Positions 9,364-32,000 of a DNA stretch of 32,000 nucleotides are shown in pieces. The translations under genes were made by a program, and so were the position numbers. Position 1 is the stretch's first letter. Every line of letters begins with the position of its first letter. The stretch comes from Nitratidesulfovibrio vulgaris str. Hildenborough (GTDB taxonomy: Bacteria > Desulfobacterota > Desulfovibrionia > Desulfovibrionales > Desulfovibrionaceae), in the NCBI RefSeq assembly GCF_000195755.1, contig NC_002937.3, forward strand, positions 2,880,001 to 2,912,000. The letters run 5' to 3'. Under the pieces are notes generated by a model that did no database searches, was not told the origin of the DNA, and worked only from the letters and a program-made list of their open reading frames with translations.

Positions 9364-10389
9364 CTAGACCTTCCCGTACAGGGCCGCGCGGGAGATGCCC
9401 GCCACATCGGCACTGCCGGTGAGGATCATGGCCTGCACCAGTTGTGCCTTGAGGGTGTCGACATAGCTGGCCACACCTTCGGCGAGGCCGCCCACGGCGG
9501 CGATGGAGAACGGACGCCCTATCATGACGGCGTCGGCACCGAGGGCGAGCATCTTGAAGACGTCCACGCCATCGCGCACACCGCCGTCAACGAGCACGGC
9601 AAGGCGGCCCTTCACGGCATCGGCAATGGCGGGCAGCACCTCTGCGGTACCGGGGGTATGGTCGAGGACGCGTCCGCCATGGTTGGAGACCACGATGGCG
9701 TCGACACCCACTTCGGCAGCGCGCAACGCATCGTCGGCGCACATGATGCCCTTGAGGATGAACCGTGCCCCGGCCCCGTGCACCTTGGTGACGATGGCGG
9801 CAAGCTCTTCAGCCGTCTTCGGGGCCACGGGGCGGCCCATCTTGCGCAGGGTGATGAGGCCCGCCGCGTCGACGTCCATGCCAAGCACCTTGCAGCCGGT
9901 GGCGAGGGCCTTGTCCAGCTTCTGGTCAAGTTCATCGCCGTCCCACGGCTTGACGAAGGGGATGCCCCGCCCGCCCGCTGCGGTGATGGCGGCAAAACCG
10001 CTCTCATGGATGAAGGGCGGCACCCCGTCGCCTGTGCAGCCCACGAGCCCCCGCTCGTTACAACCGCGCACGATGGCGTCGATGTAGTCCTCTTCGCTGA
10101 CGCCACCGCCCATGTTGAAGGAAACACCTCCGATGGGCGCGGCGAGCACGGGCATGTCGAGGTCGAGCCCGAGCAGCGTGGTACGCGTGTCCGGTGCGCT
10201 CACGCCATGAACGAGGCGCATGTTGAGTCTGACGGCAGCAAGGGCCGAAAGGTTGTTGCGGAAGGCGTTTCCGGTGCCCAGACCGCCCATGCCGGGCACC
10301 TCTCCGGCGCATGCGCGCCCGTCACAGACGGGGCACACGCGGCAGTAGCCCTTCATGAGTTGGCGTGCCTTGTCTCGTATCTCTTTCAT
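9364..10389 (-). CDS. FMN-dependent alpha-hydroxy-acid dehydrogenase/oxidase family protein with N-terminal Cys4 motif
   Basis: The track ORF is trimmed to ATG 10389, which is preceded by GGAGGAG. It has a TIM-barrel FMN family signature ...AIVVSNHGGRVLD... and ...LVDGGVRDGVDVFKMLALGADAVMIGRP.... The N-terminus is MKEIRDKARQLMKGYCRVCPVCDGRACAGEVPGMGG. Confidence 0.85.
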   Translation of the reverse strand: MKEIRDKARQLMKGYCRVCPVCDGRACAGEVPGMGGLGTGNAFRNNLSALAAVRLNMRLVHGVSAPDTRTTLLGLDLDMPVLAAPIGGVSFNMGGGVSEEDYIDAIVRGCNERGLVGCTGDGVPPFIHESGFAAITAAGGRGIPFVKPWDGDELDQKLDKALATGCKVLGMDVDAAGLITLRKMGRPVAPKTAEELAAIVTKVHGAGARFILKGIMCADDALRAAEVGVDAIVVSNHGGRVLDHTPGTAEVLPAIADAVKGRLAVLVDGGVRDGVDVFKMLALGADAVMIGRPFSIAAVGGLAEGVASYVDTLKAQLVQAMILTGSADVAGISRAALYGKV

Positions 10390-10511
10390 GAGGCTCCTCC
10401 GTTGCCACGCGAACATGGGCGGTGCGGGGCGCACAGTCCCGATGCCGTGGGTCGCGGTTGCGGTGGGGTGGATGGGTGCGCGGCAGGCCGCGCCTTCGGG
10501 CGGGGCTGCGC

Positions 10512-11240
10512 TCATGGTCTTTCCTCCTGATGCACCCACTCCAGAAAAAGCTCCTCCACGCGGAGGATGTGTTCATGCATCTCGCGAAAGGCCAGCTGGG
10601 CGTCACGCAGTTCGATGGCGCGCATGATGCGCTCATGGGTCATGATGGCCCACTGCCTGCGGCGCGGCGTCTGCAAGGTGAAATCGCGGCTTTCGCTGAG
10701 GATGTCGTGCAGACGCACCAGCATCTCCTCCAGAACGGAGTTGCGCGTGGCGCGTGCGATGAGCAGATGGAATTCGCCGTCCTCGTCCGAACCGGTGCCG
10801 CCCCCTTCGATGGCAGCCCGGTGGCGCGCGAGCGCGTCACGCAACTCGGCCATGTCCTGCCCGGTGGCGTTGACCGCCGCCAGCGAGGCTATCTGCGGTT
10901 CGATGAGACGTCGCAGTTCGAGAATCTCGCGCAGCTTCTCGCGTCGCTGTTCGATGACCTCGGCGAAGGGCTCGATGAGGTTCTCTTCGGAACCGCTGAG
11001 GACGTAGGTGCCGTCGCCAAGGCGACAGGTGACGATGCGCTGCTGTTCGAGCGCGCGGATGGCTTCACGCAGGCAGTGCCGGGAAACGCCGAAGAGCTCG
11101 GCCAGTCGACGCTCCGGGGGGAGCTTGTCGCCGGATTTCAGCTCACCCTCGTCGATGAGGGTGCGTATCTGGCCCACGATCTCTTCGTGGAGGCGTTTTC
11201 GCCGTGCCGGTTTGAACACCGGCATCTGATGCGTCTTCAT
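10512..11240 (-). CDS. GntR-family transcriptional regulator, FadR (FCD) subfamily
   Basis: Winged-HTH block: LHEEIVGQIRTLIDEGELKSGDKLPPERRLAELFGVSRHCLREAIRALEQQRIVTCRLGDGTYV. An all-helical FCD-like C-terminus follows. The start is set at ATG 11240, with ATG 11225 as an alternative. Confidence 0.85.
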   Translation of the reverse strand: MKTHQMPVFKPARRKRLHEEIVGQIRTLIDEGELKSGDKLPPERRLAELFGVSRHCLREAIRALEQQRIVTCRLGDGTYVLSGSEENLIEPFAEVIEQRREKLREILELRRLIEPQIASLAAVNATGQDMAELRDALARHRAAIEGGGTGSDEDGEFHLLIARATRNSVLEEMLVRLHDILSESRDFTLQTPRRRQWAIMTHERIMRAIELRDAQLAFREMHEHILRVEELFLEWVHQEERP

Positions 11241-11255
11241 GGAGAGGTGCCTTGC

Positions 11256-11290
11256 GTGATTGGTCCAACCAATAATTGGTTGTACCAATC
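11256..11290. promoter_or_regulatory. 35-bp near-perfect palindrome containing two TGGT-N3-ACCA (FadR-type) operator motifs
   Basis: tgattggtccaaccaataattggttgtaccaatca contains ttGGTccaACCaa (11259-11271) and ttGGTtgtACCaa (11275-11287). It lies 16 bp upstream of the GntR start codon. Confidence 0.6.
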
Positions 11291-12319: not shown

Positions 12320-12727
12320 GCTGTACCTCCGGATAGTTGAACGTGCTGGAGGCTAACCCGCGCGACCCCTCCGATGCAAGCATTCCCGGAACGCGCAGAC
12401 CGATGCAGATGCCGCGTCTGACGGTGCCCCGGCGCAGTGTCGACATCGACATGCCAACGGGCATCGCTCGCACGCGAATGGCGCCACGGGAGAGGTGCAG
12501 CATCACGCGGACACAGCCAGCACGCGTCAACGCGCCACCGCCCCGGGGCGGACTTCCGCCACGCATCCCGCCCCCGAATCGCGATCCCAGAAACCGTATC
12601 GCGTAAGCACTCACTAGCAGATTGCTCAAACAACCTTTTCGTGACACATGGCGGCATCATCGAAAACCGCCCCGTCCGCCCCGCCCGCATGGCGGAAGGC
12701 ACAACGCGCAACGCTGCGAGAGGTATC

Positions 12728-13279
12728 ATGGAGACCAGATACGCCAACCCCGCACCGCTCGGGCTCATGGGCTTCGGCATGACGACGGTGCTGCTCAACA
12801 TCCACAACGCCGGGTTCTTCCCCATCAGCGCGATGGTGCTCGCCATGGGCATCTTCTACGGCGGGCTGGCGCAGGTCATCGCCGGCATCATGGAATTCCG
12901 CAAGGGCAACACCTTCGGCACCACCGCCTTCACCTCCTACGGTCTCTTCTGGCTTTCGCTGGTGGGTCTCATCGTCATGCCCCGCCTCGGCTGGGCTGAA
13001 GCCACTCCCCATGCCTACATGGGCTGGTACCTCTTCATGTGGGGCGTCTTCACGCTGTTCATGCTGCTTGGAACATTGCGCTCCAGCGTGGTGCTGCGGC
13101 TCATCTTCCTGCTGCTTACGGTGCTGTTCTTCCTGCTGGCGGCACGCGACTGGACGGGCAGCGAGACCATCGGCACCATCGCCGGTTGGGAGGGCATCCT
13201 CACCGGTGCCTGCGCCATCTACCTTGCCATGGCAGAAGTGTTGCATGAACAACTGGGGCGCAAGGTGCTGCCTTTCTGA
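12728..13279 (+). CDS. satP: GPR1/FUN34/YaaH-family acetate(succinate) channel
   Basis: The track ORF is trimmed to ATG 12728. It has the signature N-terminus [24 protein letters not shown] and six hydrophobic helices, including ...[10 protein letters not shown].... Confidence 0.88.
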
Positions 13280-13432: not shown

Positions 13433-13851
13433 GTCTTCGTTCACACTGTGCGCTCACACAGTGCAGGACGCACAGCACACTGCATTTTTTATTGCATACC
13501 ATTCCGGTTCATTGATGTATTCGTCCCGATACCGGCAGTGTGGCTTCGACTGTCCCCCTAGAACCCGTTGCATAAATACAGAACGCCTGTCTCGCACTTC
13601 GTCGCGGGAAAAATGAACCAGTCGACTCCGAATGCAGTCTTCTCAAGGCCTTGCGCTTGCCTATACGATGCATTCACAAGGATTACGCCACTTACCCGGG
13701 TTTTCTCCGCAACCGAGTGCAAGGCTTGTGAAATAATGTTCTTTTAGAAAATACAGCCCATCACTTTCCAAAACCCTCACAACATGCCAATGTCCATGCA
13801 AAAGTTCGTCAGGAGTGCATCGTTGTAACTTCTCATTGATGAAGGTTGGCC

Positions 13852-14631
13852 ATGCCCAAACGCTACATCTCCGTTGTTGTGTTCACTGGACTGATGGCAA
13901 TTGTCGCGTTGTTTGGTTATTCAATACCAGGAGACGTGGCCGGAGCCGTTCCGACGCGCATCCGATTCGACAACGCAGGTGGCAAGGTGGTGTTCGACCA
14001 CAAGAAACACGCCGCAGACTATGCAGTACCCTGTGAGCGGTGCCACCATGAAAGCGCGACACCCCGCGAAAACGTCAAACCCTGCGGAACCTGCCACGGT
14101 GTCACGTTCGACGACGCCTTCCGCAAGAACCACGCCGCCGCCATCAACGATGGCGCCTCCTGCGTGACCTGCCACCACAGCGAGTACGCAGCCGCCAAGT
14201 GGGACCACGATGCCCACGCGCAGGGGTACAGTCCGTCCTGTACAGACTGCCACCACGACACCTCCATCGAACCCACGCCCACCAACTGTGCAGACTGCCA
14301 CAGCGACGGCAAGAACGGGGCCTCTCCGGACAGGAAGACCGCCGTCCACACCCGTTGCGCCCCCTGCCATGCCGACATGTTCGACGCAGGGGTCAAGGGC
14401 TGTGCCAGCTGCCACCCCTTCACCGACACGCGTGCCCGCTTCGCCTCGACGAAGGAGGCGGTGGTCGGCCCCGGCAGTGCAAGCTGCCAGACCTGCCATG
14501 CCGACCAGAAGCTCAAGGACCTCGTGCCCGGACGCATGGCCGCCTTCCACGGGCAGTGCATGTCGTGCCACGAGAAGGAGGGCAAGGGCCCGTTCAAGAA
14601 GGACCAATGCCAGCAGTGCCACCTGAAATAA
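13852..14631 (+). CDS. dhcA: Decaheme c-type cytochrome, membrane-anchored or secreted
   Basis: It has ten CxxCH motifs: CERCH, CGTCH, CVTCH, CTDCH, CADCH, CAPCH, CASCH, CQTCH, CMSCH, CQQCH. The N-terminus has a hydrophobic helix (YISVVVFTGLMAIVALFGY). ATG 13852 is preferred over the track TTG at 13846. rnfC lies immediately downstream. Confidence 0.9.
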   Translation: MPKRYISVVVFTGLMAIVALFGYSIPGDVAGAVPTRIRFDNAGGKVVFDHKKHAADYAVPCERCHHESATPRENVKPCGTCHGVTFDDAFRKNHAAAINDGASCVTCHHSEYAAAKWDHDAHAQGYSPSCTDCHHDTSIEPTPTNCADCHSDGKNGASPDRKTAVHTRCAPCHADMFDAGVKGCASCHPFTDTRARFASTKEAVVGPGSASCQTCHADQKLKDLVPGRMAAFHGQCMSCHEKEGKGPFKKDQCQQCHLK

Positions 14632-21272: not shown

Positions 21273-23174
21273 TCATTGCCCCCGCACCATTCCCCGGTCG
21301 CTGAACGCAAGGGATGCCGACAGCAGCACTACGAAGATCGAACCGACATTATGGAAGACCGAGGCTGCTATGGGTGAAAGCAGTCCATACGCACTTCCCA
21401 TGACCGCAACCGTATTGAACAGCAACCCGAGGGCGATGTTCACCTTTACGATGCGGAGCATACGCCGCGAGAGCCCGATGAGGAAGGGGATGTTGCCGAC
21501 CTCATCGCGGGTGAGTGCCATTCCGGCAGTCTCCAGCGCCACATGCGTTCCCGCCGCCCCCATGGCGATGCCCACGTCGGCACCTGCCAGTGCCGGGGCA
21601 TCATTGACGCCGTCACCCACGAAAAGCACCCTGCGGCCCTGAAGTTGCGCATCCCTGATGATGTCGAGTTTGTCTTGCGGCTTCAGCCCCGCCCGGTGCT
21701 GGACGATGCCCACGGCTTCGCCAGTGCGCCGCACCGCCTCGTCATGGTCGCCGGAGAGGATGCCCAGCGTATGCACCCCCAGACCGCGCAACGCTACGGC
21801 CATGTCCCGTGCGCTGTCGCGTACGGTGTCGGTGACGGCGAGGACGCCCATGGGCATGCCCTCAAGCGTGACGACAAGCGGTGTCACGCCCTGCCGCACC
21901 ATGTCGTCATGAGCCTCACGCAGTATTCCGGGCAGGAGGTCGACACCCCCGGCGAACGCGGCACTGCCCACAGCCACGACACCTTCCGGGCAACCGGCCC
22001 GGACACCGAGCCCCTGTTCCATCAGCACGCATTCCGCCACGACAGGCTCAACGCCTTCCGCGGATGCGGCGTCGACCACCGCACGTGCAAGCGGATGCGT
22101 ACAATGGCGTTCGACACCCGCCGCCAGGGCCAGCACCCGCTGCCGCGTCATGCCCTCGACCACAGAGACATCGCGGACACATGGTTTGCCAAGGGTGAGA
22201 GTTCCCGTCTTGTCGAAGAAGGCCGCGTCAACACGGGACAGGGCCTCAAGATGCCGACCTCCCTTGACGAGGATACCCTTCCTCGCAGCGCGGGCGACCG
22301 CAGCCACCGTCGCTGTCGGGGCGGCCATGAGAAGGGAGCAGGGGCACCCCGCCACAAGAACCGCGACGGCCCGTGACGACTCGCCGGTGATGAACCATGC
22401 CGCAGCAGCGCAGACCAGCACCAGTGGCGTGAACCACTTCGCGTACCTGTCCACCAGCCGCGCAGTCGTGGGTTTGTGCTCTTCGGCCTCGTTGACCAGT
22501 CGCACCACGCGGCCCAGTGTCGTATCTTCCCCCACATGCTCCGCAACGATCTCTATGACACCGTTATAGTTGAGGGTCGCCGAGAACACCCTGTCACCTG
22601 CGCCACGGTCACGGGGTACAGGCTCACCTGTCACGGTCGACTCGTCCACCGCCGTCACCCCCTTCACGATGACGCCGTCAACGGGAATACGCTCACCGGG
22701 CCGCACGAGAAGGAGGTCGCCGGGGCGGACGGTATCGAGAGGCACCTCGACGGGGGTATCACCGTCCAGTTTCGTCGCGGACTCCGGGGTCATCTCCGCC
22801 AACGCACCGATGGAAGCCCGCGCAGCGTCACTGATGGCCCCTTCCAGCAATGCTCCAAGCGTCATGATGAAGCTGACGACGGCTGCGGTCAGGTACTCGC
22901 CCTGCAACAGGGCGCCGATGATGGCGAGGCTCACCAGTTCGTCCACGTTCACGCGCCGCTGGCGCAACCCGTTGATGGCCTCCCTGATGATGGGCAACCC
23001 GTTGAGTCCCACCGCGGCAAGGGCCATCGCCTCGGCAAGCCATTGCGGCTGCATGCCGCCGACGCCCCACAGGTACCCCGCAAGGGCGATGCCACCGCCA
23101 CCAAGGCAGCGCATGAATTCCTGTGTATCCAGAAGTTCCCGATAGGTTCCGATATGCGCAAAACGTCCGATCAT
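21273..23174 (-). CDS. Heavy-metal-translocating P1B-type ATPase without N-terminal metal-binding domain
   Basis: 633 aa. It has a CPC transmembrane motif (VAGCPCSLLMAAP), the phosphorylation site FFDKTGTLT, the hinge GDGVNDAPAL and a TGEP actuator loop. No N-terminal CxxC HMA domain is visible. Confidence 0.9.
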   Translation of the reverse strand: MIGRFAHIGTYRELLDTQEFMRCLGGGGIALAGYLWGVGGMQPQWLAEAMALAAVGLNGLPIIREAINGLRQRRVNVDELVSLAIIGALLQGEYLTAAVVSFIMTLGALLEGAISDAARASIGALAEMTPESATKLDGDTPVEVPLDTVRPGDLLLVRPGERIPVDGVIVKGVTAVDESTVTGEPVPRDRGAGDRVFSATLNYNGVIEIVAEHVGEDTTLGRVVRLVNEAEEHKPTTARLVDRYAKWFTPLVLVCAAAAWFITGESSRAVAVLVAGCPCSLLMAAPTATVAAVARAARKGILVKGGRHLEALSRVDAAFFDKTGTLTLGKPCVRDVSVVEGMTRQRVLALAAGVERHCTHPLARAVVDAASAEGVEPVVAECVLMEQGLGVRAGCPEGVVAVGSAAFAGGVDLLPGILREAHDDMVRQGVTPLVVTLEGMPMGVLAVTDTVRDSARDMAVALRGLGVHTLGILSGDHDEAVRRTGEAVGIVQHRAGLKPQDKLDIIRDAQLQGRRVLFVGDGVNDAPALAGADVGIAMGAAGTHVALETAGMALTRDEVGNIPFLIGLSRRMLRIVKVNIALGLLFNTVAVMGSAYGLLSPIAASVFHNVGSIFVVLLSASLAFSDRGMVRGQ

Positions 23175-23356: not shown

Positions 23357-24691
23357 ATGGCCTTGACATCGGCCCCATCAGGCAGGATGCTTGGCAGCAT
23401 ACGATACATGTCAGGAGCCTCACGCTTGCCGACCTCTTCCCATTCCGCGACACCGCGCCCGCCCTTCATGGGGCTGACACTGGCAGACGCCCTGAACATG
23501 GCCCCCGCCATGCTCTGGCACATCGACAGTGCCTACGGCGAGATCACCTTCTGTAACGAGCACAGGCTCACCGGGCAAAGCGACGCCCTGCGGCTCATGC
23601 TCAAGGACCCCCGCCATGCCGCGTCCATCGCCCACCCCGAAGACCTCGACGCCTGTACGACGGCCCTGCGTTCCATCAGGGCGCTTCATCCGGTGTCGCT
23701 GCTCTTCAGGGCACGCGACGACGATGGTGAATGGCGCTGGCTGGTGATGCTGGGGCACCCCGTGCCGGAAACGGCGGGCAACTATGTGGGTCTGCTTGCC
23801 TGTTGTGACGGACTCGCCACCACCCTGCTGGGGCGGGGAGGCGAAGTGCCGCTGGCGCAGAGCATCGAGTTGCTGGACACACCCGTACTGCTGGTGGAGT
23901 TCGCAAGCCGCAAGGTCGCCGCAGCCAACACGGCAGCCCGCAACCTGCTCGGCTATGCGACCCCCGACGAGTTTCCGCCGCTGGACATGTTGCTGGGCAG
24001 TGCGGGAACACCCTATCGCAACAGCATCTTCGAACAGCTCATCTTCAAGGCTTCGTGGCGCGGGACTCTTCCCCTTCAGGACGCACAGGGCCGCGCACTG
24101 GCGTGCTCGCTGCACCTGCGCCCCCTCGCCCGTGAAGGGCACAACTACCTGTGGATGAGCATCGCGCCGGTGGCCTCGGCACCCGCGCCTTTCACGCGCT
24201 TCGACAGTGGCATGGCAGCCGCGGCCGAAGCACTGCAACTGGCCATAGACACCCGTAGCGCACTGGAGGCGATGCTCACCCACCAGCCGGAGGCGATGCA
24301 GGCCGAAGGACTGATGCTCTCACGCATCTATCCCGAAGAGGACAGGGTCGAGGTCACCGGGGTGGGGACGCCCTTCGCGGGCATGGAAGACAAGGCAAGC
24401 TATCCCTATGTCGGTTCCATTGCCGAGAACCTCGTCCAGTACGGGCTTGGACATCTGGTCGTCGAGGAGACGACGCGCAGCATCCGCCCCATCGACTGGG
24501 TGCTGTTCATCCCGCGCAACGTCCATTCCTATTATGCCGAACCATGGTTCGAAAACGGCAAGCTGCGCTACGTGCTCATCTACTGTTCCACTGCACCTGC
24601 GGCCTTCCCTCCCGGCGGAGTCCCAGCCTGCCGGGACATGCTGGCTCGACTTGCCGACACGCTGAAACGTCTGGAAGGCAACGCCCCCTGA
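23357..24691 (+). CDS. PAS-domain sensor protein with no recognisable output domain
   Basis: There are two PAS/PAC-like segments (..IAHPEDLDACTTALRSIRALHPVSLLFRARDDDGEWRWLVMLGHPV.. and ..LLVEFASRKVAAANTAARNLLGY..WRGTLPLQDAQGRALACSLHLRPL..). A ~150-aa GAF-like C-terminus follows. The start is uncertain, with candidate ATGs at 23357, 23387, 23408 and 23468. Confidence 0.6.
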   Translation: MALTSAPSGRMLGSIRYMSGASRLPTSSHSATPRPPFMGLTLADALNMAPAMLWHIDSAYGEITFCNEHRLTGQSDALRLMLKDPRHAASIAHPEDLDACTTALRSIRALHPVSLLFRARDDDGEWRWLVMLGHPVPETAGNYVGLLACCDGLATTLLGRGGEVPLAQSIELLDTPVLLVEFASRKVAAANTAARNLLGYATPDEFPPLDMLLGSAGTPYRNSIFEQLIFKASWRGTLPLQDAQGRALACSLHLRPLAREGHNYLWMSIAPVASAPAPFTRFDSGMAAAAEALQLAIDTRSALEAMLTHQPEAMQAEGLMLSRIYPEEDRVEVTGVGTPFAGMEDKASYPYVGSIAENLVQYGLGHLVVEETTRSIRPIDWVLFIPRNVHSYYAEPWFENGKLRYVLIYCSTAPAAFPPGGVPACRDMLARLADTLKRLEGNAP

Positions 24692-24808: not shown

Positions 24809-24847
24809 AAAGGCCATATCTGGCACTGCCAGTTATGGCCTTTTTTG
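24809..24847 (+). terminator. Rho-independent terminator after the PAS gene
   Basis: aaaggccata-t-ctggca-c-tgccag-t-tatggccttt is an extended hairpin followed by a T-run (ttttttg). Confidence 0.7.
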
Positions 24848-24938
24848 TTGCAGAACATTGTCAAACCACACCCGATGACCTAACGCTGGTTTCAAGAACC
24901 TTGCACACACAACATCGTAACAATCTGGTTGGGCCAGA

Positions 24939-25634
24939 ATGAAACAGAAAGCGGCACACACGGCATCCGAACAGATCATGAAGCTCGTCCATAGCCTCGG
25001 ACTCACTTCAGGAGAGCGTCTGCCCGGAGAACGCGACCTCGCCGAACGCCTCGGCTGGAGCCGCAATACCGTGCGCGAGGCCATCTCGGCCCTCGCAGCC
25101 CGAGGGCTGGTCGAAATACGGATGCGTAGCGGCGTCTATCTGTGCGACTCCGGCCCGGACGCCATCTGCACCGGCCAGAGAAGCTGCGGCGACGCCGTGG
25201 ACGCACTCACGGTGCTGGGTCCCGCACTGGTGGAACGCGTCTGCACGCGATGCACCGACGACGACCACGAACGTGCCGAACGGGTCACGGCACGGCTGGG
25301 CAGGGCCCTTGTCGACCGCAACCCGCACGACGCATGGCTGGGCCTGATGGCCTTCTACGGCGGTCTCGCCCAGAGCACCGGCAACGCCCTTTTGGAGCAC
25401 AGTGCCGAGGAGGTCGCCACGGCGGGCCTTCGTGCCTGTGACGTGCTCGCGGGAAACGAACTGCCGCACGACGCCCTTCAGACGTTCTTCGCCGCGCACG
25501 TGGAGATGCTCCAGGCCATGCGCCGCCGCGAACGGATACAGGCGCGGCAACTCGCCGAAGACAGCCTGACGGCCTTCGGCAGGATGTTGCAGGTGGCGGG
25601 GTATGCCCCGCAGGAGGCAACCCATGACGCGTAG
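24939..25634 (+). CDS. GntR-family transcriptional regulator, FadR (FCD) subfamily
   Basis: 231 aa. HTH block: ASEQIMKLVHSLGLTSGERLPGERDLAERLGWSRNTVREAISALAARGLVEIRMRSGVYL. A helical C-terminal domain follows. It is the first gene of the co-oriented cluster. Confidence 0.85.
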   Translation: MKQKAAHTASEQIMKLVHSLGLTSGERLPGERDLAERLGWSRNTVREAISALAARGLVEIRMRSGVYLCDSGPDAICTGQRSCGDAVDALTVLGPALVERVCTRCTDDDHERAERVTARLGRALVDRNPHDAWLGLMAFYGGLAQSTGNALLEHSAEEVATAGLRACDVLAGNELPHDALQTFFAAHVEMLQAMRRRERIQARQLAEDSLTAFGRMLQVAGYAPQEATHDA

Positions 25635-25845
25635 GGATTTCCTGCGCCTGCGGATGGGTGGAGGACGCTCCGCAGACGCGGAAGCACGTCCCGTGAGACA
25701 GGCACACGCTGGCGGGGCCACTCCGCTGCGTGACCTCTATCTGCGGGCGATGCAGGCCGGGGTCGATCCGGCGACCATGACCCCGGAGGAACTGGCAGGA
25801 AGATTCGGTTCAGAGGCAACGTCTAACGACGCGCACGGCGGATAG
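25624..25845 (+). CDS. Candidate small protein (73 aa) with N-terminal twin-arginine-like motif but no hydrophobic core
   Basis: ATG 25624 overlaps the GntR stop by 11 nt. The protein starts MTRRDFLRLRMGGGRSADAEARPV.... There is no clear RBS and some rare codons (AGG, AGA). It could be non-coding. Confidence 0.35.
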   Translation: MTRRDFLRLRMGGGRSADAEARPVRQAHAGGATPLRDLYLRAMQAGVDPATMTPEELAGRFGSEATSNDAHGG

Positions 25846-25913
25846 AGAAGCGCCGGGGCGACCGCCAAGTCAGGCCCCGACGCAGATGGCCGTCGTCCGC
25901 AGGGGAGTACCCG

Positions 25914-27323
25914 ATGGACATGGACAGCAACGGTACACTTTATCTTGAGAGCCGCAAGCTGGTCAAACGGTGGAGCGGCCCATGGCCCGCACTGATCAAT
26001 ACATTGATCATGGCGGTGTTCTTCTACATCACGTGGTGGATTTTCCAGGACCCGCGCGGCGTGTTCCGCATGTACACGCCCTATGTGGGCTACATGGTCT
26101 GCCGCTGGATGCTCATCCTCTTCATCTGGGTGGCGTACATCTTCGACTTCTGGCCGTTCAAGCGGTCATGGCTCGAGCGCACCCACCCGCTGGTCAAGGG
26201 GCTCGTGCTCACACTGGTGAGCGTGGCGGCGATGGTCATCGTCATCAAGGGCTTCTTCATCGAACTGCTCGGCAACTACGGCATCGCCTACTTCAACCCT
26301 GAACGGTTGCAGGCCATGGGCATCACGCACTTCTATGCGCTGGAATACGCCACTGAAGCCATCATGATGTTCGCCGCCATCGCCTCGTGGCTGTCGCCCA
26401 GCTGGGTGGTCGCCTGCGAAGGCGCACCGTGGAACAAGCTGAAGCAGCCTGCCAAGGGCCTCACCATCATGGTGGTGACGTTCTTCCTCAGCATGATCGT
26501 CTACTTCGTGACCATGCACTCGCACATGGCCATCCTGTTCTACCCGTGGCAGCAGTACACGGCCATCACCCCGCCCTACTGGGAAGCCTTCGCCAACACC
26601 GTGTCGGGCAACTTCCACATCGCGTGGATCATGTGCTGCACCGTCGTCGTGTGGCAGTTCGAGACCATCTGGGAACGCTACCCCTTCAACCTGATCAAGA
26701 CCGACTGGCTGCGCCGCACCGCGTCGTTCTTCGGCATCATCCTCATCGCGCTGGCGCTGTGCTTCTTCCTCTACTACGCACAGGACCTCGTGTGGGGTGA
26801 GACCATCCGCGGCACGCGTCGTCTTGCCGCGCCCGACTGGCGCTGGCTGCACGTGGGCGAGATGGCCATCTTCTGGCTGGTTCCCACGCTGTTCCTCAAC
26901 TTCTACTGCAACAACTGGCCCAACAACTTCAGCCGTCCCGTGCGCGTATGCCTGCGCACCTTCCTGACGGCGGCACTCGCCGTGCTGGTGTACGTGGTCT
27001 ACTACAAGACCGCCCACCTCTTCCTCGGCACCCAGAAGGGCTTCTCGCACCCGCAGCAGTTCCCCATGATCCCGATGATCTGGCTGATCAACATCTTCCT
27101 GATCAACGTGTGGTTCATGGACGGCTGGCCGGGCTGGAAGGCCGTGCCCCGCACCGCCGAAGAGATGCGCGAAGTCGAAGAGGAGAAGGTGGCGAGCGAC
27201 GTGAAGTGGACACCCGCCCTCGCACGCGGCCTCGCCGTGGGTGTGGCCTGCGGTGCGGGTCTCTACGCCATCGTCATCGCCATCCTGCCATGGGTCGGCA
27301 AGACCGTTGAAATCATCAAGTAA
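25914..27323 (+). CDS. Trp/aromatic-rich polytopic membrane protein (about 11 TM), family not recognised
   Basis: 469 aa. GGGGAG RBS lies upstream of the ATG. I see about 11 hydrophobic helices by eye and count roughly 28 Trp residues (motifs such as ITWWIF, FDFWPF, WPGW). An acidic linker (TAEEMREVEEEK) precedes the last helix. Confidence 0.8.
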   Translation: MDMDSNGTLYLESRKLVKRWSGPWPALINTLIMAVFFYITWWIFQDPRGVFRMYTPYVGYMVCRWMLILFIWVAYIFDFWPFKRSWLERTHPLVKGLVLTLVSVAAMVIVIKGFFIELLGNYGIAYFNPERLQAMGITHFYALEYATEAIMMFAAIASWLSPSWVVACEGAPWNKLKQPAKGLTIMVVTFFLSMIVYFVTMHSHMAILFYPWQQYTAITPPYWEAFANTVSGNFHIAWIMCCTVVVWQFETIWERYPFNLIKTDWLRRTASFFGIILIALALCFFLYYAQDLVWGETIRGTRRLAAPDWRWLHVGEMAIFWLVPTLFLNFYCNNWPNNFSRPVRVCLRTFLTAALAVLVYVVYYKTAHLFLGTQKGFSHPQQFPMIPMIWLINIFLINVWFMDGWPGWKAVPRTAEEMREVEEEKVASDVKWTPALARGLAVGVACGAGLYAIVIAILPWVGKTVEIIK

Positions 27324-27339
27324 GGCCCGGGAGAACGAC

Positions 27340-28497
27340 ATGAACGACAACAAGATAAGCCGTCGCGACTTCGTCAAGGGCGTCGCCACGGGCGTATGCG
27401 CCGGTGCCTTCGCCTCGATGGGCCTGTACTCGTACACCCAGTCGGCCTACGACAGGCTGCCCAAGGTCCAGCGCAAGTTCGAGGACTTCGGGGCCTGCCG
27501 CAGCGTCAAGGTCATCAACATCTCCGAGACCAGCTGGTTCAACAACGCGCACCTCATCGGCGACATCCACGACGCCGGGGGCCTGCTGGTGAACCAGTAC
27601 ACCCTCAACTGGGCCCCCTTCGCCAACGGGCAGGGCAAGGCCAAGGGTTCATACGATTCGGGCCTTGCCAGCATCAAGGACCTCATCCCCAACGACCTTG
27701 AAAAGGCGTGGGAGATCCAGAAGAAGCTGGCCCTGCACCCCGAGAACCCCGGCGGCTTCTCCTGCCTCATCGAGGTGGAGGAACTGGACGGCACCAAGCA
27801 CAAGTACCTGCTGGACACCGGCTGGTCGTACGACTGGATGGAGAAGAGCTTCAAGCGCGAGGGCATCGACAAGATGCTCCAAGCCCGTGAGATCGAAGCC
27901 CTGTTCATCTCGCACGAACACTGGGACCACTTCTGGGGACTGCCCGTCACCATGAAGTACGACAACCGCATCCCCCTGTACGTGCACGACGGCTTCTACA
28001 AGGAAGGACTCCAGTACATCAAGGACAGCGGCTACAAGGGTACCCCGGTCATCCAGAAGGAACCCATGCGGCAGATCATTCCCGGCATGGCGGTGCTCAA
28101 GTTCGACGTGCCCATCATCAACCGCGTGTTCGGCGAGACCTCGCTGGCGTTCAACGTCAAGGACAAGGGTCTCGTGCTCATCTCCGGGTGCTGCCATCAG
28201 GGCATCCTGCAGATGGCCGACTTCGCCTACACCGACCTGAAGTACGACAACGACAGGTTCTACGGCATCTATGGCGGTCTGCACATCTCGCCCTTCGAGG
28301 ACTGGGACCCCAAGTACGACGACCTCGTCATCTCGCTTGCCAAGTGGAACTTCGAACGCATCGGCTGCAACCACTGCACCGGGCACCTCACCGCGAAGAA
28401 GTTCATCGAACGCGGCTACCCCGTGGTGCGCGGTACGGCACGGTTCAGGTCGTCGTCCCCCGACTACCTCGGCAACGGCGACACCATCACCTTCTAA
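27340..28497 (+). CDS. Tat-exported metallo-beta-lactamase-fold protein (COG1237-like subfamily, tentative)
   Basis: ATG 27340 follows GGGAGA. Tat signal: MNDNKISRRDFVKGVATGVCAGAFASMG. The MBL motif HxHxDH is present as ISHEHWDHFWGL. Further blocks ISGCCHQGI, GGLHISP and GCNHCTG resemble the COG1237 type. Confidence 0.85.
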   Translation: MNDNKISRRDFVKGVATGVCAGAFASMGLYSYTQSAYDRLPKVQRKFEDFGACRSVKVINISETSWFNNAHLIGDIHDAGGLLVNQYTLNWAPFANGQGKAKGSYDSGLASIKDLIPNDLEKAWEIQKKLALHPENPGGFSCLIEVEELDGTKHKYLLDTGWSYDWMEKSFKREGIDKMLQAREIEALFISHEHWDHFWGLPVTMKYDNRIPLYVHDGFYKEGLQYIKDSGYKGTPVIQKEPMRQIIPGMAVLKFDVPIINRVFGETSLAFNVKDKGLVLISGCCHQGILQMADFAYTDLKYDNDRFYGIYGGLHISPFEDWDPKYDDLVISLAKWNFERIGCNHCTGHLTAKKFIERGYPVVRGTARFRSSSPDYLGNGDTITF

Positions 28498-28504
28498 CGC
28501 ATGA

Positions 28505-28528
28505 GGGGCGGGGCTTCGGCCCCGCCCC
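28505..28528 (+). other. Very GC-rich intra-operon stem-loop (10-bp stem, TTCG tetraloop)
   Basis: ggggcggggc-ttcg-gccccgcccc lies in the 46-nt gap between the MBL stop (28497) and the COG0523 start (28544). No T-tract follows. Confidence 0.6.
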
Positions 28529-28543
28529 CTTCCGGAACGCCGC

Positions 28544-30490
28544 ATGAACACCGACTTCTTTCTCCCCCCCGGTGCCGACGGAGTCTCCCCCGCACACCTT
28601 GCCCGTCTTGCCGCCAACGCCCTGTCCGCCGCCTGCCGCGACGCCCGTTTCAAGAAGCTCACCGGCTGGCGCGGGCTTGCCCATTGTCAGGGCGGTACAG
28701 GGGCCTTCACCTGCCGCATCGCACCCCATCAGGGCGTGTTCGGCATCGACTGTGAAGGGGTTGAAAGCAGGACAGGGGCCGTGCTGCTGCGTTGCGGCAT
28801 CCACTATTTCCCCGACCCCGATGAGGCGCTGTGCGACACCCTGCGCCTCGACGCCGCCGTCGCCACCCAGCATGCCGACTATGCCACCGCCATCCGGTCG
28901 TTCGTCACCCTTCCGGCCCTGCGCGGGCCATTCCGCATGGGACGGCTGGACGTGGCCGCCGCGCCAGACGGTACTTGGCTTCTGCTGCGCACACAGGCCG
29001 AAGAACGCAGACGCGTCATCGCCGACGAGGGCATCGGGTCGCCGCAGACAGGCTGGGCCGTGCGCCCCGGCGAGACCGAAGAGGACATGCCAGCCCTCTC
29101 TCTCGCACGCCATGTGACGGATGTGGTGGCAGCTGCCGTCACCGCCTGCACGGGCACGCCCCCGCGCTTCTTCCGCCGGGCGACCCTGCCCGCCTTCATC
29201 TCGCACCGCGACGCAGAGGGTGCCCTGTACCCCGTCACCACCGACGATGCCAGCACCGTGGCGGATACGCTGGCATGGGGCGACATCAACGCCATCCCGT
29301 CTGATACTCTCGCCGGAGAGGGCCAACCCTGCCTTGAGGTGCGCGCCGCCGACGCGCCCGACGCACCCCTGCCCGAAGACCGCAGGAACGCACCCGTATG
29401 GTTCGCGCACGACCTTGAAGCACCGCGCTGCACGGCCCTCTTCCCCCGTCTGGCCGACAGACGCCCCGCCCTCGTTGTGGTGGGCGGCTTTCTGGGTTCG
29501 GGCAAGACCACCTTCCTGAACAACTGCATCGAATACCACCGCGCCCGCGAACGTTTCGTCGCAGTCATCCAGAACGAGGTGGGGGCAACAGGCGTCGACG
29601 CCCGTCTCATGGGCGACGGGGCCGAGGTGCTGGCCCTCGACGAGGGATGCGTCTGCTGCTCACTGGCGGGCAGCCTTGCGGGTGGCATTCGCGCCATCAC
29701 CGCCGACTTCACACCCGAGGTCATCCTGCTTGAGACCACCGGCCTCGCCAACCCGCTGAACCTGCTGGCTGAACTCGACACCCTGCGTGACATGGTGCGC
29801 CTCGATGCCGTGGTCACCGTGGTGGACGCCGCCAACATCGTGCCCACCCTGCGCGACAGCGACATCGCCCGCGACCAGATTCGCGGGGCCGACATCATCG
29901 TCTGCAACAAATGCGACACCGTCGATGAGACAGGACGCGCCGCCCTGCGCGCCACCCTCACGGGGCTGAATGGCAGGGCCGCCCTGCACGAGACCAGCTT
30001 CGGCCGCATCCATCCCTCGCTGTTCATGGCGCTGGAAGGCGAACGTCCGCCGCGCGGTCTCATGCCCGCCCCGCACGGTACGCACGCCACACACGCCGAC
30101 GAGGGCTTCGCCGCCGTGCGGCTGTTCTTCTCCGGTACCATTGACGAGGCGGCACTCGCGCCCCTGCTGCAGCAGTGCCCCGGTGCGCCCTTCCGCATCA
30201 AGGGCATCGTCCGCGTCACGGATGACGAGGCCCCGCGCCTCGTCCAGTGCGTGGGGGCACGATGCGAGGTCGAACGACTTGATGGCGGCTTCGAGGGCAC
30301 GCCCTTCCTCGTCTTCATCGGACGCAACCCGGACGAGACCGCCTTGCTGGAACACTGGGCCGCACTGGGTGCCACTGCCGAACCCCCTGCACCGCAAGCA
30401 GAGGCAGACACGCAGCCCGCACAGGCCACGAAGTCGGCATCGGGCGGACAGTCGTCCGACGCCACAAGAGGATGCCATGACCATCATTGA
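28544..30490 (+). CDS. COG0523/CobW-family G3E GTPase (metallochaperone type) with ~305-aa N-terminal extension
   Basis: 648 aa. The GTPase core starts near aa 308. It has Walker A GGFLGSGKTTF, the metal motif GCVCCS, Walker B LLETTGLANP and NKCD. A CobW_C-like segment follows (FRIKGIVRV.......LVFIG). The C-terminal tail is ...GCHDHH. Confidence 0.85.
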   Translation: MNTDFFLPPGADGVSPAHLARLAANALSAACRDARFKKLTGWRGLAHCQGGTGAFTCRIAPHQGVFGIDCEGVESRTGAVLLRCGIHYFPDPDEALCDTLRLDAAVATQHADYATAIRSFVTLPALRGPFRMGRLDVAAAPDGTWLLLRTQAEERRRVIADEGIGSPQTGWAVRPGETEEDMPALSLARHVTDVVAAAVTACTGTPPRFFRRATLPAFISHRDAEGALYPVTTDDASTVADTLAWGDINAIPSDTLAGEGQPCLEVRAADAPDAPLPEDRRNAPVWFAHDLEAPRCTALFPRLADRRPALVVVGGFLGSGKTTFLNNCIEYHRARERFVAVIQNEVGATGVDARLMGDGAEVLALDEGCVCCSLAGSLAGGIRAITADFTPEVILLETTGLANPLNLLAELDTLRDMVRLDAVVTVVDAANIVPTLRDSDIARDQIRGADIIVCNKCDTVDETGRAALRATLTGLNGRAALHETSFGRIHPSLFMALEGERPPRGLMPAPHGTHATHADEGFAAVRLFFSGTIDEAALAPLLQQCPGAPFRIKGIVRVTDDEAPRLVQCVGARCEVERLDGGFEGTPFLVFIGRNPDETALLEHWAALGATAEPPAPQAEADTQPAQATKSASGGQSSDATRGCHDHH

Positions 30491-31226
30491 ACAGGGCGGG
30501 CCACTCATGTGGCCCCTGCTGGGGCTTTCCATCCTCGCCTGCGCGGTCATGCTCGACCGTGGCATCGCCCTCTCCACCTTCGGCTTCCCGGCCAAGGGAT
30601 TCCTCTCGGCACTCACCGAAGCCGTGCGGCGCAGCGACGCCACGGCCTTGCGCGCCCTGTGCGCCGACCTGCCCGAAGCGCTGCGCCCCTTGCTGGACGT
30701 GCTGTTCCCCACTACGCCACGCCCCGACAGGGAACGTGCCGTCCGCATCATGGGCGAGGCGGTCCTGCATGAACTGACGCGCCGTGTGGGGGTGCTCGGC
30801 CTCGTGGTGCGGGCCGCGCCCCTGCTGGGGCTGCTGGGCACGGTGCTTGGCATGATATCGACCTTCTCGACGGTCGCCGCCTCCGGCGGGGGCATCGACA
30901 TGGCGGGACTCGCTGCCGGGATATGGCAGGCGCTCATCACCACTGCCGCCGGACTCGGCATTGCCATTCCCGCGCTGGCGGCGCAACACTGGTGCAACCA
31001 GCGCATCGACGCCGTAGCCGAGGCCCTCGAACAACTGGCCGATGCCGTCGAAGCCCTCGAACGTACCCCTGCCGGTCTTGCCGACGCAGCATCCCCCGAG
31101 GCGCGTGTCCTGCCCCTTGAACGTATGAAGGCGGCCCAGCCCGCCCCGCGTAACGGCACCAGCCCCGGTGCCGCACCAGCCCCCACCCTACCCGCCGCCG
31201 GGCAGTCCCATGCGCCACGCGACTAG
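30477..31226 (+). CDS. exbB: MotA/TolQ/ExbB-family proton-channel protein
   Basis: ATG 30477 overlaps the COG0523 stop by 14 nt. The sequence includes MTIIEQGGPLMWPLLGLSILACAVMLDR... and the family core ..APLLGLLGTVLGMISTF...AAGIWQALITTAAGLGIAIPAL... Confidence 0.82.
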   Translation: MTIIEQGGPLMWPLLGLSILACAVMLDRGIALSTFGFPAKGFLSALTEAVRRSDATALRALCADLPEALRPLLDVLFPTTPRPDRERAVRIMGEAVLHELTRRVGVLGLVVRAAPLLGLLGTVLGMISTFSTVAASGGGIDMAGLAAGIWQALITTAAGLGIAIPALAAQHWCNQRIDAVAEALEQLADAVEALERTPAGLADAASPEARVLPLERMKAAQPAPRNGTSPGAAPAPTLPAAGQSHAPRD

Positions 31227-31656
31227 ACGCGCCTTCTCGCGCCGCATGGCCGAAGAACCCGACATCACCCCCCTGCTGGACGTGGTGTTCATCCTGCTGC
31301 TGTTCTTCGTGCTTGCGGCCACGTTCACCGTGCGCGGCATGGACCTCGACCTGCCGCCCGCGCAATCGGGCAAGGCCGTTTCCGGCAAGGTCAAGGAATT
31401 GCGCCTCGACAACCGGGGCACGCTCACCTGTGACGGCGTGGTGCTTGGCGAGGAAGGGCTGGTCGCCCTTGTCCGCAGCAACGCCGACCATGGCAGGGGC
31501 ACGGGTGCGCGCCTCGTCCTCAAGGCATCGGGAGAGGCACCGGTCGCCGCGCTGTTGCGGGTCGTCGATACGGTACGGGCCAATGGCGGGCAGCAACTCG
31601 TCATCGCAACGTCCCCCGCGGTAGCGGGCGGCAGTGACAGCCCCGACACACCATGA
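31210..31656 (+). CDS. exbD: ExbD/TolR-family protein
   Basis: ATG 31210 overlaps the exbB stop by 17 nt. It has a single TM with the conserved Asp (DITPLLDVVFILLLFFVL) followed by a periplasmic domain. Confidence 0.8.
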   Translation: MRHATRRAFSRRMAEEPDITPLLDVVFILLLFFVLAATFTVRGMDLDLPPAQSGKAVSGKVKELRLDNRGTLTCDGVVLGEEGLVALVRSNADHGRGTGARLVLKASGEAPVAALLRVVDTVRANGGQQLVIATSPAVAGGSDSPDTP

Positions 31657-32000
31657 CCCCCGCCGAACGTTTCGCCGCCTGCCTTGCCGTGTCGGGCTTC
31701 GTGCATTTCGTGGCTACGGGGCTGCACGCCACCGCCGACCCTGCAACCTTCGAACGGGCGGTCTCCATCGTCTGCGACCTCGCACCACCGGAAGCCGTCG
31801 TCAGATTCGGAGACGCCACCTTCACCGGAGAGGCGGACGCGACCGACGGCAAGGCCACCGAGGATGAAGCGCGCAAGGCCATGCGCCGCTACCTGCATGA
31901 CGTGAGCGACGCCATCCACGCCCGTCGCCTGACCACCCCCGGCACCTCAGGCTGTCTCGGCACGGCATGGGTGAGTTTTGCCATCCTCCCCGACGGCAGG
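31653..32000 (+). CDS. tonB: TonB-like energy-transducer (partial; continues past window end)
   Basis: Own translation; the ORF is open at the window edge and so absent from the track. ATG 31653 overlaps the exbD stop (ATGA). The sequence is MTPAERFAACLAVSGFVHFVATGL..., a TM helix with an S-x3-H motif. Later ...RRYLHDVSDAIHARRL......GTAWVSFAILPDGR resembles the start of a TonB C-terminal domain. Confidence 0.6.
   Translation, partial: MTPAERFAACLAVSGFVHFVATGLHATADPATFERAVSIVCDLAPPEAVVRFGDATFTGEADATDGKATEDEARKAMRRYLHDVSDAIHARRLTTPGTSGCLGTAWVSFAILPDGR

Follow-up and report, generated by a model that had tools for sequence, protein, structure and literature searches.

An undescribed gene cluster around a Tat-signal metallo-beta-lactamase-fold protein and a tryptophan-rich membrane protein in Nitratidesulfovibrio vulgaris Hildenborough

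Background

Does the run of genes DVU2801-DVU2808 in Nitratidesulfovibrio vulgaris Hildenborough constitute one system, and if so what might that system do at the cell envelope? The genes lie in a stretch of 32,000 nt of this genome, here called the window, and a preliminary description of the stretch had singled out eight of them as a candidate functional unit: a GntR regulator, a small protein with an RR motif, a tryptophan-rich membrane protein, a protein with a twin-arginine translocation (Tat) signal and a metallo-beta-lactamase (MBL) fold, a COG0523 GTPase with an additional N-terminal domain (below called the adaptor), and ExbB, ExbD and TonB. By the present analysis we rate this as an undescribed system with a core outside the known families. 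The reading that we favour, without granting it quite an even chance, is a periplasm-facing two-subunit metalloenzyme that would be matured by the adaptor and the GTPase before Tat export, repressed by GntR and energised by TonB.

A literature search gave no description of the cluster and, in the papers that it covered, no text mention of DVU2803-2808. In a paper on random-barcode transposon sequencing (RB-TnSeq) DVU2803 and DVU2804 appear in the insertion table alone, both tolerating transposon insertions, and it was through the coordinates in the transposon table that these two locus tags were assigned to the membrane protein and the MBL protein, respectively.

Results and discussion

Conservation of the gene cluster

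A scan using one genome per species located the cluster at 43 genome loci, which represent five phyla or more, and gene order and strand are constant throughout: PAS protein, GntR, small protein, membrane protein, MBL protein, adaptor-GTPase, ExbB, ExbD and TonB. The hosts are found among Desulfovibrionales, Desulfobacterales, Alphaproteobacteria (Rhodoplanes, Rhodobium, Breoghania and Oleispirillum), Leptospirales, Deferribacterales and Anaerolineae together with a betaproteobacterium, and the components were counted by tblastn and all-against-all clustering (Table 1). The flanks of the loci are unrelated; a Pfam census of 146 flanking open reading frames (ORFs) revealed no family in more than two loci apart from TonB domains, for which TonB_C and TonB_2 gave matches, and the large ORFs among them encode chemotaxis receptors (adjoining the cluster in four loci), MetE, glycogen phosphorylase and similar proteins, none of them a TonB-dependent receptor. 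The preliminary description had let its reading of a single functional unit depend on conserved linkage, and since the linkage is conserved that reading stands.

In the window the eight genes occupy positions 24939-32000, all on the + strand, and the ORF table gives exact overlaps at 25624/25634, 30477/30490, 31210/31226 and 31653/31656, the remaining intergenic gaps in the cluster being 68, 16 and 46 nt. Gene calls on four public contigs with identical proteins (L044-L047, for example CP000527; L numbers denote single loci) match the ORF table, which confirms both the common orientation and the four overlapping junctions. The view that unrelated genes came together by chance in D. vulgaris could draw on the gaps of 46-68 nt within the cluster and on the hairpin that parts the PAS gene from gntR; it is, however, contradicted by the equal order across phyla within unrelated flanks, and with four translational overlaps and a conserved operator also speaking against it this explanation is hardly conceivable.

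The extent of the unit and the equal standing of its genes, as first described, had to be revised. The linkage of the eight genes holds, but the PAS gene upstream also accompanies the cluster (26 loci), and not all genes belong to the core. The adaptor and the small protein occur in distant-branch loci as well (the small protein was found with a hidden Markov model (HMM) in L050, L054, L058 and L059/L060), and because of this the ancestral system, as read from the sequences, is made up of four genes, encoding the membrane protein, the Tat-signal MBL protein, the adaptor and the small RR-motif protein. The COG0523 GTPase (fused to the adaptor), the GntR regulator, the PAS protein and ExbB-ExbD-TonB are clade-specific additions to this core.

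When comparing identities, the central pair of membrane protein and MBL protein was found to be ~75% identical across proteobacterial classes against 34–47% for the neighbours. Divergence of the neighbours is normal, and the pair is therefore under exceptional constraint and not recently transferred. This points to a chemistry under tight constraint, and probably an important one, in anaerobes that live in sulfidic habitats.

Table 1. Occurrence of the components among the 43 loci and median identity to the D. vulgaris protein across loci
Component	Loci of 43	Median identity (%)
MBL gene/protein	42	74.7
Membrane gene/protein	41-42	74.7
Small RR-motif protein	31-32	
Extended COG0523	35	
COG0523 N-domain (adaptor)		33.9
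GTPase module		46.8
GntR	28-31	37.3
Upstream PAS protein	26	38.4
ExbB, ExbD, TonB	21-23	
ExbB	23	43.8
ExbD	21-22	43.0

A few loci show features of their own. Halodesulfovibrio sp. MK-HDV (L054, WYDS01000008.1) probably harbours two diverged copies of the cluster, with the membrane proteins P0019 (80% identical) and P0112 (66%), and the copy containing P0112 is without ExbB-ExbD-TonB and has on its flanks a dCache chemoreceptor and a dCache histidine kinase. In two Desulfobacterales loci (L035, 8716-9432, and L039, 9285-9740) a weak NifX/NafY-type (Nitro_FeMo-Co) protein, below the Pfam cut-off, is encoded directly before the membrane gene. In L059 (5194-8591) the module is followed by two genes of the type I phosphodiesterase family flanking a gene for adenosine 5'-phosphosulfate (APS) kinase, while in L038 a fusion of coenzyme A (CoA)-disulfide reductase and rhodanese is located upstream of the module; these two neighbourhoods are scattered hints at sulfur or phosphoester chemistry. 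As a lead, sulfur metabolism was set aside, the neighbours in question (rhodanese in L054, TauE in L056, the CoA-disulfide-reductase-rhodanese in L038 and APS kinase in L059, along with the NifX-like domain in L035 and L039) being too scattered.

The MBL-fold protein and its membrane partner

DVU2804 belongs to the MBL-fold superfamily by its match to Lactamase_B (PF00753, 29.0 bits against a cut-off of 22.7) and carries a Tat signal (TAT_signal, TIGR01409, 25.1 against 16.7). The motif SRRDFVKG followed by a Gly/Ala-rich h-region is found in all orthologues with an intact N-terminus, so that by its sequence DVU2804 is a Tat substrate with predicted export. Invariant residues are H192, H194, D196 and H197 (HxHxDH) together with C284, H286, H315, H345 and C346. 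Because the Tat signal is universal and because the HxHxDH motif and the downstream His and Cys residues are invariant, the protein is probably exported as a folded metalloprotein. The conservation of the SRRDF motif and the Gly-rich hydrophobic region runs on into the mature N-terminus, and for that reason DVU2804 may stay anchored in the membrane.

A profile search of the PDB placed the solved structures 7dck (1e-17), 2p4z (5e-14) and 3h3e/TM1679 (6e-7) closest to DVU2804; their PDB entries name them as uncharacterised MBL-fold proteins or "metal-dependent hydrolases". Identity as a class B beta-lactamase (B1, B2 or B3) was rejected since that search gave these three and a marginal glyoxalase II only. 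As for the substrate class, our guess from this family assignment would be an anionic ester or a sulfur compound, on which the enzyme would perform hydrolysis or group transfer.

The MBL gene adjoins the membrane gene in 42 of the 43 loci, and this adjacency persists in distant branches, where the MBL proteins are 37–44% identical and the order is sometimes reversed. The two genes form an obligate pair.

The membrane protein DVU2803, with 28 Trp in 469 residues, had been called unclassifiable, and it represents a new family whose fold matches no solved structure. It shows no sequence match in Pfam, NCBIfam or PDB, and a profile search of 1.84 billion representative proteins gave 161 matches, mostly fragments, among which ten full-length distant relatives showed no domain in a Pfam scan. 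The AlphaFold2 (AF2) model contains ~11 helices (predicted local distance difference test (pLDDT) 79.8, predicted template modelling score (pTM) 0.83), and a Foldseek search of this model against the PDB gave nothing significant, the best E value being 0.08 and the template modelling score (TM) at most 0.23. Two candidate relatives were discarded, namely the NrfD-like subunit of alternative complex III (E 0.08, TM 0.15) and the amino acid transporters implied by the IMG name "AAT family amino acid transporter", for which no AA_permease-type profile matched and ApcT reached only TM 0.13 (E 1.2).

The count of Lys and Arg is 19 inside and 7 outside, and the N-terminus is therefore placed in the cytoplasm. 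With this topology the model puts the invariant residues H204, H235, H313, H368 and H379 together with D308 and E316 at the periplasmic face, with the five His at the ends of helices 5, 6, 8 and 9 on this side of the membrane and in the loop next to them. The periplasmic loops are strongly conserved yet modelled with low confidence, and this combination suggests that they may be the interface to a partner. On the other side of the membrane the N-terminal strand and the strand 408-412 form a small cytoplasmic sheet in the model.

These features bear on whether the pair could be a redox enzyme, a small respiratory or detoxifying reductase in which a redox-active dimetal MBL site as in flavodiiron proteins would serve to reduce a periplasmic oxidant, with the membrane subunit passing electrons to or from the quinone pool. 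That both subunits are so strongly conserved is typical of respiratory enzymes, five invariant His are found at the periplasmic face, chemotaxis receptors and PAS sensors recur as neighbours in a way that fits energy taxis, and in L028 a rubrerythrin gene is adjacent. Flavodiiron proteins, however, carry the metal motif HxExDH, while that of DVU2804 is the hydrolase-type HxHxDH; moreover no Fe-S, haem c or flavin subunit is recognised in the cluster by Pfam or NCBIfam, and the resemblance to alternative complex III is insignificant. We therefore regard a redox enzyme as very unlikely.

The adaptor domain and the COG0523 GTPase

In DVU2805 residues 1-305 gave no Pfam match at E≤1. A Foldseek search of the PDB with the AF2 model of the domain, which is of high confidence (pLDDT 95.1, pTM 0.93), gave nothing significant (best E 0.026, TM 0.11), and PcyA, the top match, was discarded at TM below 0.2. 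The domain is kept in 35 of 35 fused orthologues. It had been described as Cys-rich, which does not hold for the family, as no Cys is invariant and the Cys content is a detail of D. vulgaris.

Stand-alone homologues of the adaptor, 270-345 residues long, adjoin the MBL gene where no GTPase is encoded. They were identified with HMMs in L058, L059 and L053 (E 1.8e-23 to 1.2e-14) and in Anaerolineae (E 4e-7 to 1.6e-3); a homologue query with the N-domain only gave no match, probably a word-index failure on an Ala-rich query, and homologues were instead collected with the full-length query and local HMMs. As a separate adaptor gene persists beside the MBL gene in the absence of the GTPase, the adaptor appears to be tied to the MBL enzyme and not to the GTPase.

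The C-terminal module is a member of COG0523/G3E by its matches to cobW (PF02492, 139.7 bits) and CobW_C (PF07683, 44.4 bits), and it matches YjiA in the PDB at 2.4e-19. The P-loop GFLGSGKTT and the metal motif GCVCCS are conserved among the orthologues, and with P-loop and CxCC in place the module is, judged by these motifs, a competent GTPase. All NCBIfam equivalogs stayed below their cut-offs (CobW 104 against 332.1, ZigA 89.1 against 600 and PRK11537 86.4 against 361), so that it is to be placed in COG0523 but in no characterised subfamily. In D. vulgaris the protein ends in a His-rich tail. The earlier suggestion that the GTPase serves the MBL enzyme is supported indirectly by the gene linkage, the system-specific adaptor standing beside the MBL gene even where the GTPase is missing; the metal loading itself we infer.

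The small RR-motif protein

The start of the gene for the small protein overlaps the gntR stop by 11 nt. The protein has no Pfam or NCBIfam match and is recognised by two conserved motifs, an N-terminal M-x-RR-D/E-F-L/F and a C-terminal helix motif LFxxAMxxG(I/V)DPAT.

ExbB, ExbD and a short TonB

By their domains (MotA_ExbB, PF01618, 87.6 bits; ExbD, PF02472, 94 bits; TonB_C) and by the motif SxxxH, kept as SGFVH in the transmembrane helix of TonB, the last three proteins are a TonB-ExbB-ExbD unit as judged from sequence. The complete TonB, taken from the identical contigs L044-L047, has 169 residues, and all TonB proteins linked to the cluster are 168-179 residues long with 2–8% Pro and without a proline-rich spacer. 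In none of the 43 loci was a TonB-dependent receptor found within 10 kb, and neither Plug nor any receptor family appeared in the flank census. The preliminary description had proposed looking for a receptor beyond position 32000; there TonB closes after ~160 nt and is followed by convergent formate-dehydrogenase genes, with no outer-membrane receptor.

A short TonB without a linked receptor can be read in two ways, either with a receptor encoded elsewhere or with direct action on an inner-membrane complex. According to the latter, ExbB-ExbD and the short TonB would serve no outer-membrane receptor and instead use the proton-motive force to drive the complex of membrane protein and MBL protein directly, for substrate extraction, product release or gating. 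The uniformly short TonB proteins with their SxxxH motif and no proline-rich rod, the lack of a receptor near the loci and the translational coupling of exbB, exbD and tonB to the GTPase gene would all fit. On the other hand, receptors are often encoded elsewhere in a genome, the ~50-residue linker could still span the periplasm if extended, no confident TonB-box-like motif was seen and about half of the loci manage without ExbB-ExbD-TonB, and we consider direct action distinctly unlikely.

COG0523 proteins and ExbB-ExbD-TonB are typically paired in zinc-starvation regulons, and the preliminary description had pointed to this resemblance. The pairing of COG0523 with a TonB unit is indeed present, but a resemblance it stays; the GTPase scores far below the cut-offs of the ZigA, CobW and YjiA type. 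It nevertheless suggests another explanation for the cluster, a pipeline for metal acquisition in metal-scarce sulfidic habitats with TonB-energised uptake of a metal complex from which the MBL protein would release or capture the metal. Such a pipeline is unlikely, as is the further arrangement in which the membrane protein would be the permease and the adaptor would dock the COG0523 protein at its cytoplasmic face, metal then being passed to clients. In its favour, apart from the pairing, are the conserved CxCC and the His-rich tail of the D. vulgaris protein, the hosts being anaerobes of sulfidic settings, the phenotype of a DVU2802 mutant on a sulfate shift (see below) and the small cytoplasmic sheet of the membrane-protein model, which could dock a partner. 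It is opposed by the regulators, which are GntR/FCD, a sigma-54 PAS activator or XRE-cupin with no metal sensor seen, by the wide failure to reach the subfamily cut-offs, by whole branches that keep the adaptor without the GTPase, by the lack of conserved metal ligands in the adaptor and by the neighbouring P1B ATPase being unlinked in other genomes; nor is any receptor or binding protein linked according to the flank census, and 75% identity across phyla would be unusual for a pair of permease and scavenging hydrolase.

Transcriptional control

DVU2802 contains a GntR domain (PF00392, 58.5 bits) and an FCD domain (PF07729, 43.7 bits), both above cut-off, and reaches no NCBIfam equivalog cut-off (UxuR, LldR, NanR, PdhR, GlcC). 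Judged by its sequence characters, which include a palindrome of the TGGT-N-ACCA type, it is a FadR-like member of the GntR family. When analysing the upstream regions of gntR a common palindrome of 13 bp, CTGGTTGGACCAG, appeared, and this was the sole conserved upstream element found. In 26 loci of Desulfovibrionales and Alphaproteobacteria a copy is situated between -4 and -18 relative to the gntR start. Distal copies stand at -95 to -124 in ~22 loci, a third copy often at about -210 to -297, and sometimes one is found before the PAS gene. In the window the site CTGGTTGGGCCAG (24925-24937) is the best match within the 32 kb and ends 1 nt before the gntR start codon. The position of the distal operator in other genomes corresponds here to the loop of a hairpin (24821-24833, CTGGCACTGCCAG), 118 nt before gntR.

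As the palindrome is conserved both in position and in sequence at the gntR start, DVU2802 is probably an autoregulated repressor of the operon, with predicted binding, in agreement with the FCD-type GntR control proposed earlier. DVU2802 is listed as a predicted repressor in previous work, in which the mutant was impaired when sulfate-depleted medium was exchanged for sulfate-rich medium (PMC5371734). The regulator is not the same everywhere; in Desulfobacterales (including L035 and L039) a divergent PAS-sigma-54 activator replaces GntR, and one Anaerolineae locus has an XRE-cupin regulator.

Upstream of gntR the terminator that had been described at 24809-24847 is real. The arms of the hairpin (24809-24825 and 24827-24843) are 94% complementary, and the hairpin 24809-24843 with its T-run folds with dG = -24.6 kcal/mol (z -3.7), none of 200 shuffled sequences being as stable. 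From the sequence, the PAS gene would be transcribed separately in D. vulgaris, with this hairpin as its terminator. Its product DVU2801 matches PAS_3 (25.8 bits) and more weakly PAS_8 and PAS_9, and has no output domain and no hydrophobic segment; the orthologues adjacent to the cluster have a median identity of 38%.

Two further observations concern the operator word. A palindrome, CTGGTTGCACCAG, one mismatch from the GntR operator, is located inside exbB (30989-31001) and may be there by chance, as 18 matches at three mismatches or fewer were found where ~11 are expected. A second GntR/FCD regulator is encoded on the - strand at 10512-11288, and just upstream of it (11260-11288) stand the tandem palindromes TTGGTCCAACCAA and TTGGTTGTACCAA, a word near-identical to the operator of the cluster. 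Since the operator words are almost equal, the two regulators might cross-talk. Downstream of the second regulator, on the - strand, are genes for a flavin mononucleotide (FMN)-dependent dehydrogenase (9364-10539) and a protein of the TauE/SafE sulfite-exporter family (8557-9357).

Proposed function of the system

With gene content, conservation, motifs, operator and the lack of homologues established, the two-subunit metalloenzyme that we favour may be pictured as follows. The Tat-exported MBL metalloprotein, with an intact site of the binuclear type, would be the first subunit, working at the periplasmic face of the inner membrane, and the 11-helix membrane protein would be the second, serving the enzyme either as a docking site or as a neighbour next to which it remains anchored. 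In the cytoplasm the system-specific adaptor would hold the folded MBL precursor, probably via its twin-arginine signal, and in proteobacterial versions the fusion of adaptor and COG0523 would couple this holding to GTP-dependent loading of metal before Tat export. The small RR-motif protein may share in the recognition step as a competitor, escort or checkpoint. GntR would repress its own operon via CTGGTTGGACCAG at promoter and start codon until released by a small ligand, with the PAS proteins as a possible second regulatory input. ExbB-ExbD and the short TonB would provide proton-motive energy, either for substrate uptake via a receptor encoded elsewhere or by direct action on the complex.

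What we infer in this picture is the formation of a complex, the route of maturation, the part played by the RR motif and the coupling to energy, and several findings weigh against it. No cluster of Cys, His or acidic residues is conserved in the adaptor, which does not resemble known Tat chaperones and whose role is deduced from gene linkage alone, and the small protein has no hydrophobic segment after its RR motif, which clouds its relation to Tat. There is no linked TonB-dependent receptor and TonB lacks its usual spacer; furthermore, because about half of the loci do without ExbB-ExbD-TonB, TonB cannot be essential to the core chemistry.

A bolder version of the proposal would be a new envelope machine in which the short TonB acts on the MBL/membrane complex and the adaptor reads the RR motifs of both the enzyme and a decoy-like small protein at the Tat step. 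We consider this distinctly unlikely; if true, an inner-membrane enzyme would join the targets of TonB-type energy transduction, and the adaptor would represent a new class of Tat quality-control factor.

Whatever the function, three of the four core proteins (the membrane partner, the adaptor and the small RR-motif protein) are in no described family, and two of these have confident models that resemble no solved structure. With this system the COG0523 metallochaperone family would gain a client that can be clearly assigned, and a spacer-less TonB without a linked receptor raises the question of what TonB does here. The host, D. vulgaris Hildenborough, is genetically tractable: transposon libraries and methods for gene deletion exist, and the regulator is named and has a predicted operator.

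Features of the window

The features of the cluster are listed in Table 2. The domain calls of the preliminary description (GntR and FCD, Lactamase_B, TAT_signal, cobW and CobW_C, MotA_ExbB, ExbD and TonB_C) were all upheld by Pfam and NCBIfam.

Table 2. Features of the cluster, in window coordinates
Feature	Position	Strand	Basis or remark
PAS-only cytoplasmic protein DVU2801	23357..24691	+	alternative public starts 23427 or 23468
Hairpin and T-run, terminator of the PAS gene	24809..24847	+	folding energy, arm complementarity
Proximal GntR operator (predicted), CTGGTTGGGCCAG	24925..24937	.	one mismatch to consensus CTGGTTGGACCAG
GntR/FCD regulator DVU2802	24939..25634	+	Pfam
Small RR-motif protein, 73 residues	25624..25845	+	conserved motifs, HMM
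Trp-rich membrane protein DVU2803, 469 residues	25914..27323	+	AF2 model, conservation; no family match
Tat-signal MBL-fold protein DVU2804, 385 residues	27340..28497	+	Lactamase_B, TAT_signal
Adaptor domain, DVU2805 residues 1-305	28544..29458	+	AF2 model, orthologues
COG0523 (G3E) GTPase module of DVU2805 (648 residues in total)	29459..30490	+	cobW and CobW_C
ExbB-type proton-channel subunit, next gene after DVU2805	30477..31226	+	MotA_ExbB; 14-nt overlap with GTPase gene
ExbD-type subunit	31210..31656	+	ExbD; 17-nt overlap with exbB
Short TonB, start only in window (end ~32162)	31653..32000	+	TonB_C on full gene

An Rfam scan of the window gave no riboswitch or other RNA element, the PADLOC models no defence-system match except a marginal helix-turn-helix (HTH) match for GntR, and a tblastn search of PLSDB no plasmid copy. 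The - strand at 21273-23174 encodes a P1B-type ATPase that has a CPC motif and lacks an N-terminal metal-binding domain; its gene diverges from the PAS gene, and a MarR regulator gene is located just upstream. A tie of the cluster to this ATPase and MarR was rejected, as a homologue of the ATPase occurs in none of the 43 loci, and a tie to the downstream formate dehydrogenase was rejected because the latter is convergent and is not conserved among the loci. Elsewhere on the + strand a gene for a membrane protein of the GPR1/FUN34/YaaH family (acetate/succinate channel family) is located at 12437-13279, and a gene for a multihaem class III cytochrome c at 13846-14631 is followed by an Rnf-type operon (to 19747) encoding RnfD-, RnfE/A- and RnfB-like proteins according to Pfam.

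Comparison with known systems

With Zur-controlled zinc islands (COG0523, TonB-ExbB-ExbD and a ZnuD-type receptor) the cluster shares the COG0523 GTPase and the TonB unit. It differs in that the regulator is GntR/FCD with a palindrome of its own, in that there is no linked receptor and TonB is short, and in that the core genes for membrane protein, MBL protein and adaptor have no counterpart in the zinc islands.

In its logic the cluster resembles COG0523 proteins with a dedicated client, such as the activator of Fe-type nitrile hydratase, CobW with cobaltochelatase and ZNG1 with methionine aminopeptidase 1. The G3E P-loop, CxCC and CobW_C are common to these and DVU2805, and the linkage to one metalloenzyme suggests GTP-dependent delivery of metal to that client. 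Here, however, metal would be delivered to an MBL-fold protein that Tat exports to the periplasm, and recognition would take place through a fused domain of ~300 residues without a known fold, a domain which also exists without the GTPase.

The Tat proofreading chaperones (TorD/DmsD, NapD, HyaE/HybE) likewise are enzyme-specific cytoplasmic helpers encoded beside a cofactor-requiring Tat substrate, and, as with the vestigial RR motifs of NarG-NarJ, the RR motif may serve here as a binding handle. The adaptor, however, shows no sequence or fold similarity to these chaperones, its client would have a simple metal site instead of molybdopterin or NiFe, and an extra small RR-motif protein is present.

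For DVU2804 itself the nearest known proteins are those of the 7dck/2p4z/TM1679 group, which we take to be COG1237, and with which it shares the motifs HxHxDH, GCxH, GGxH and HC(T/S)G. To these DVU2804 adds the Tat signal, a conserved N-terminal extension of ~100 residues including the motif ISETSWF and an insertion at residues 100-135, and whereas the proteins of the group are soluble, DVU2804 has an obligatory membrane-protein partner.

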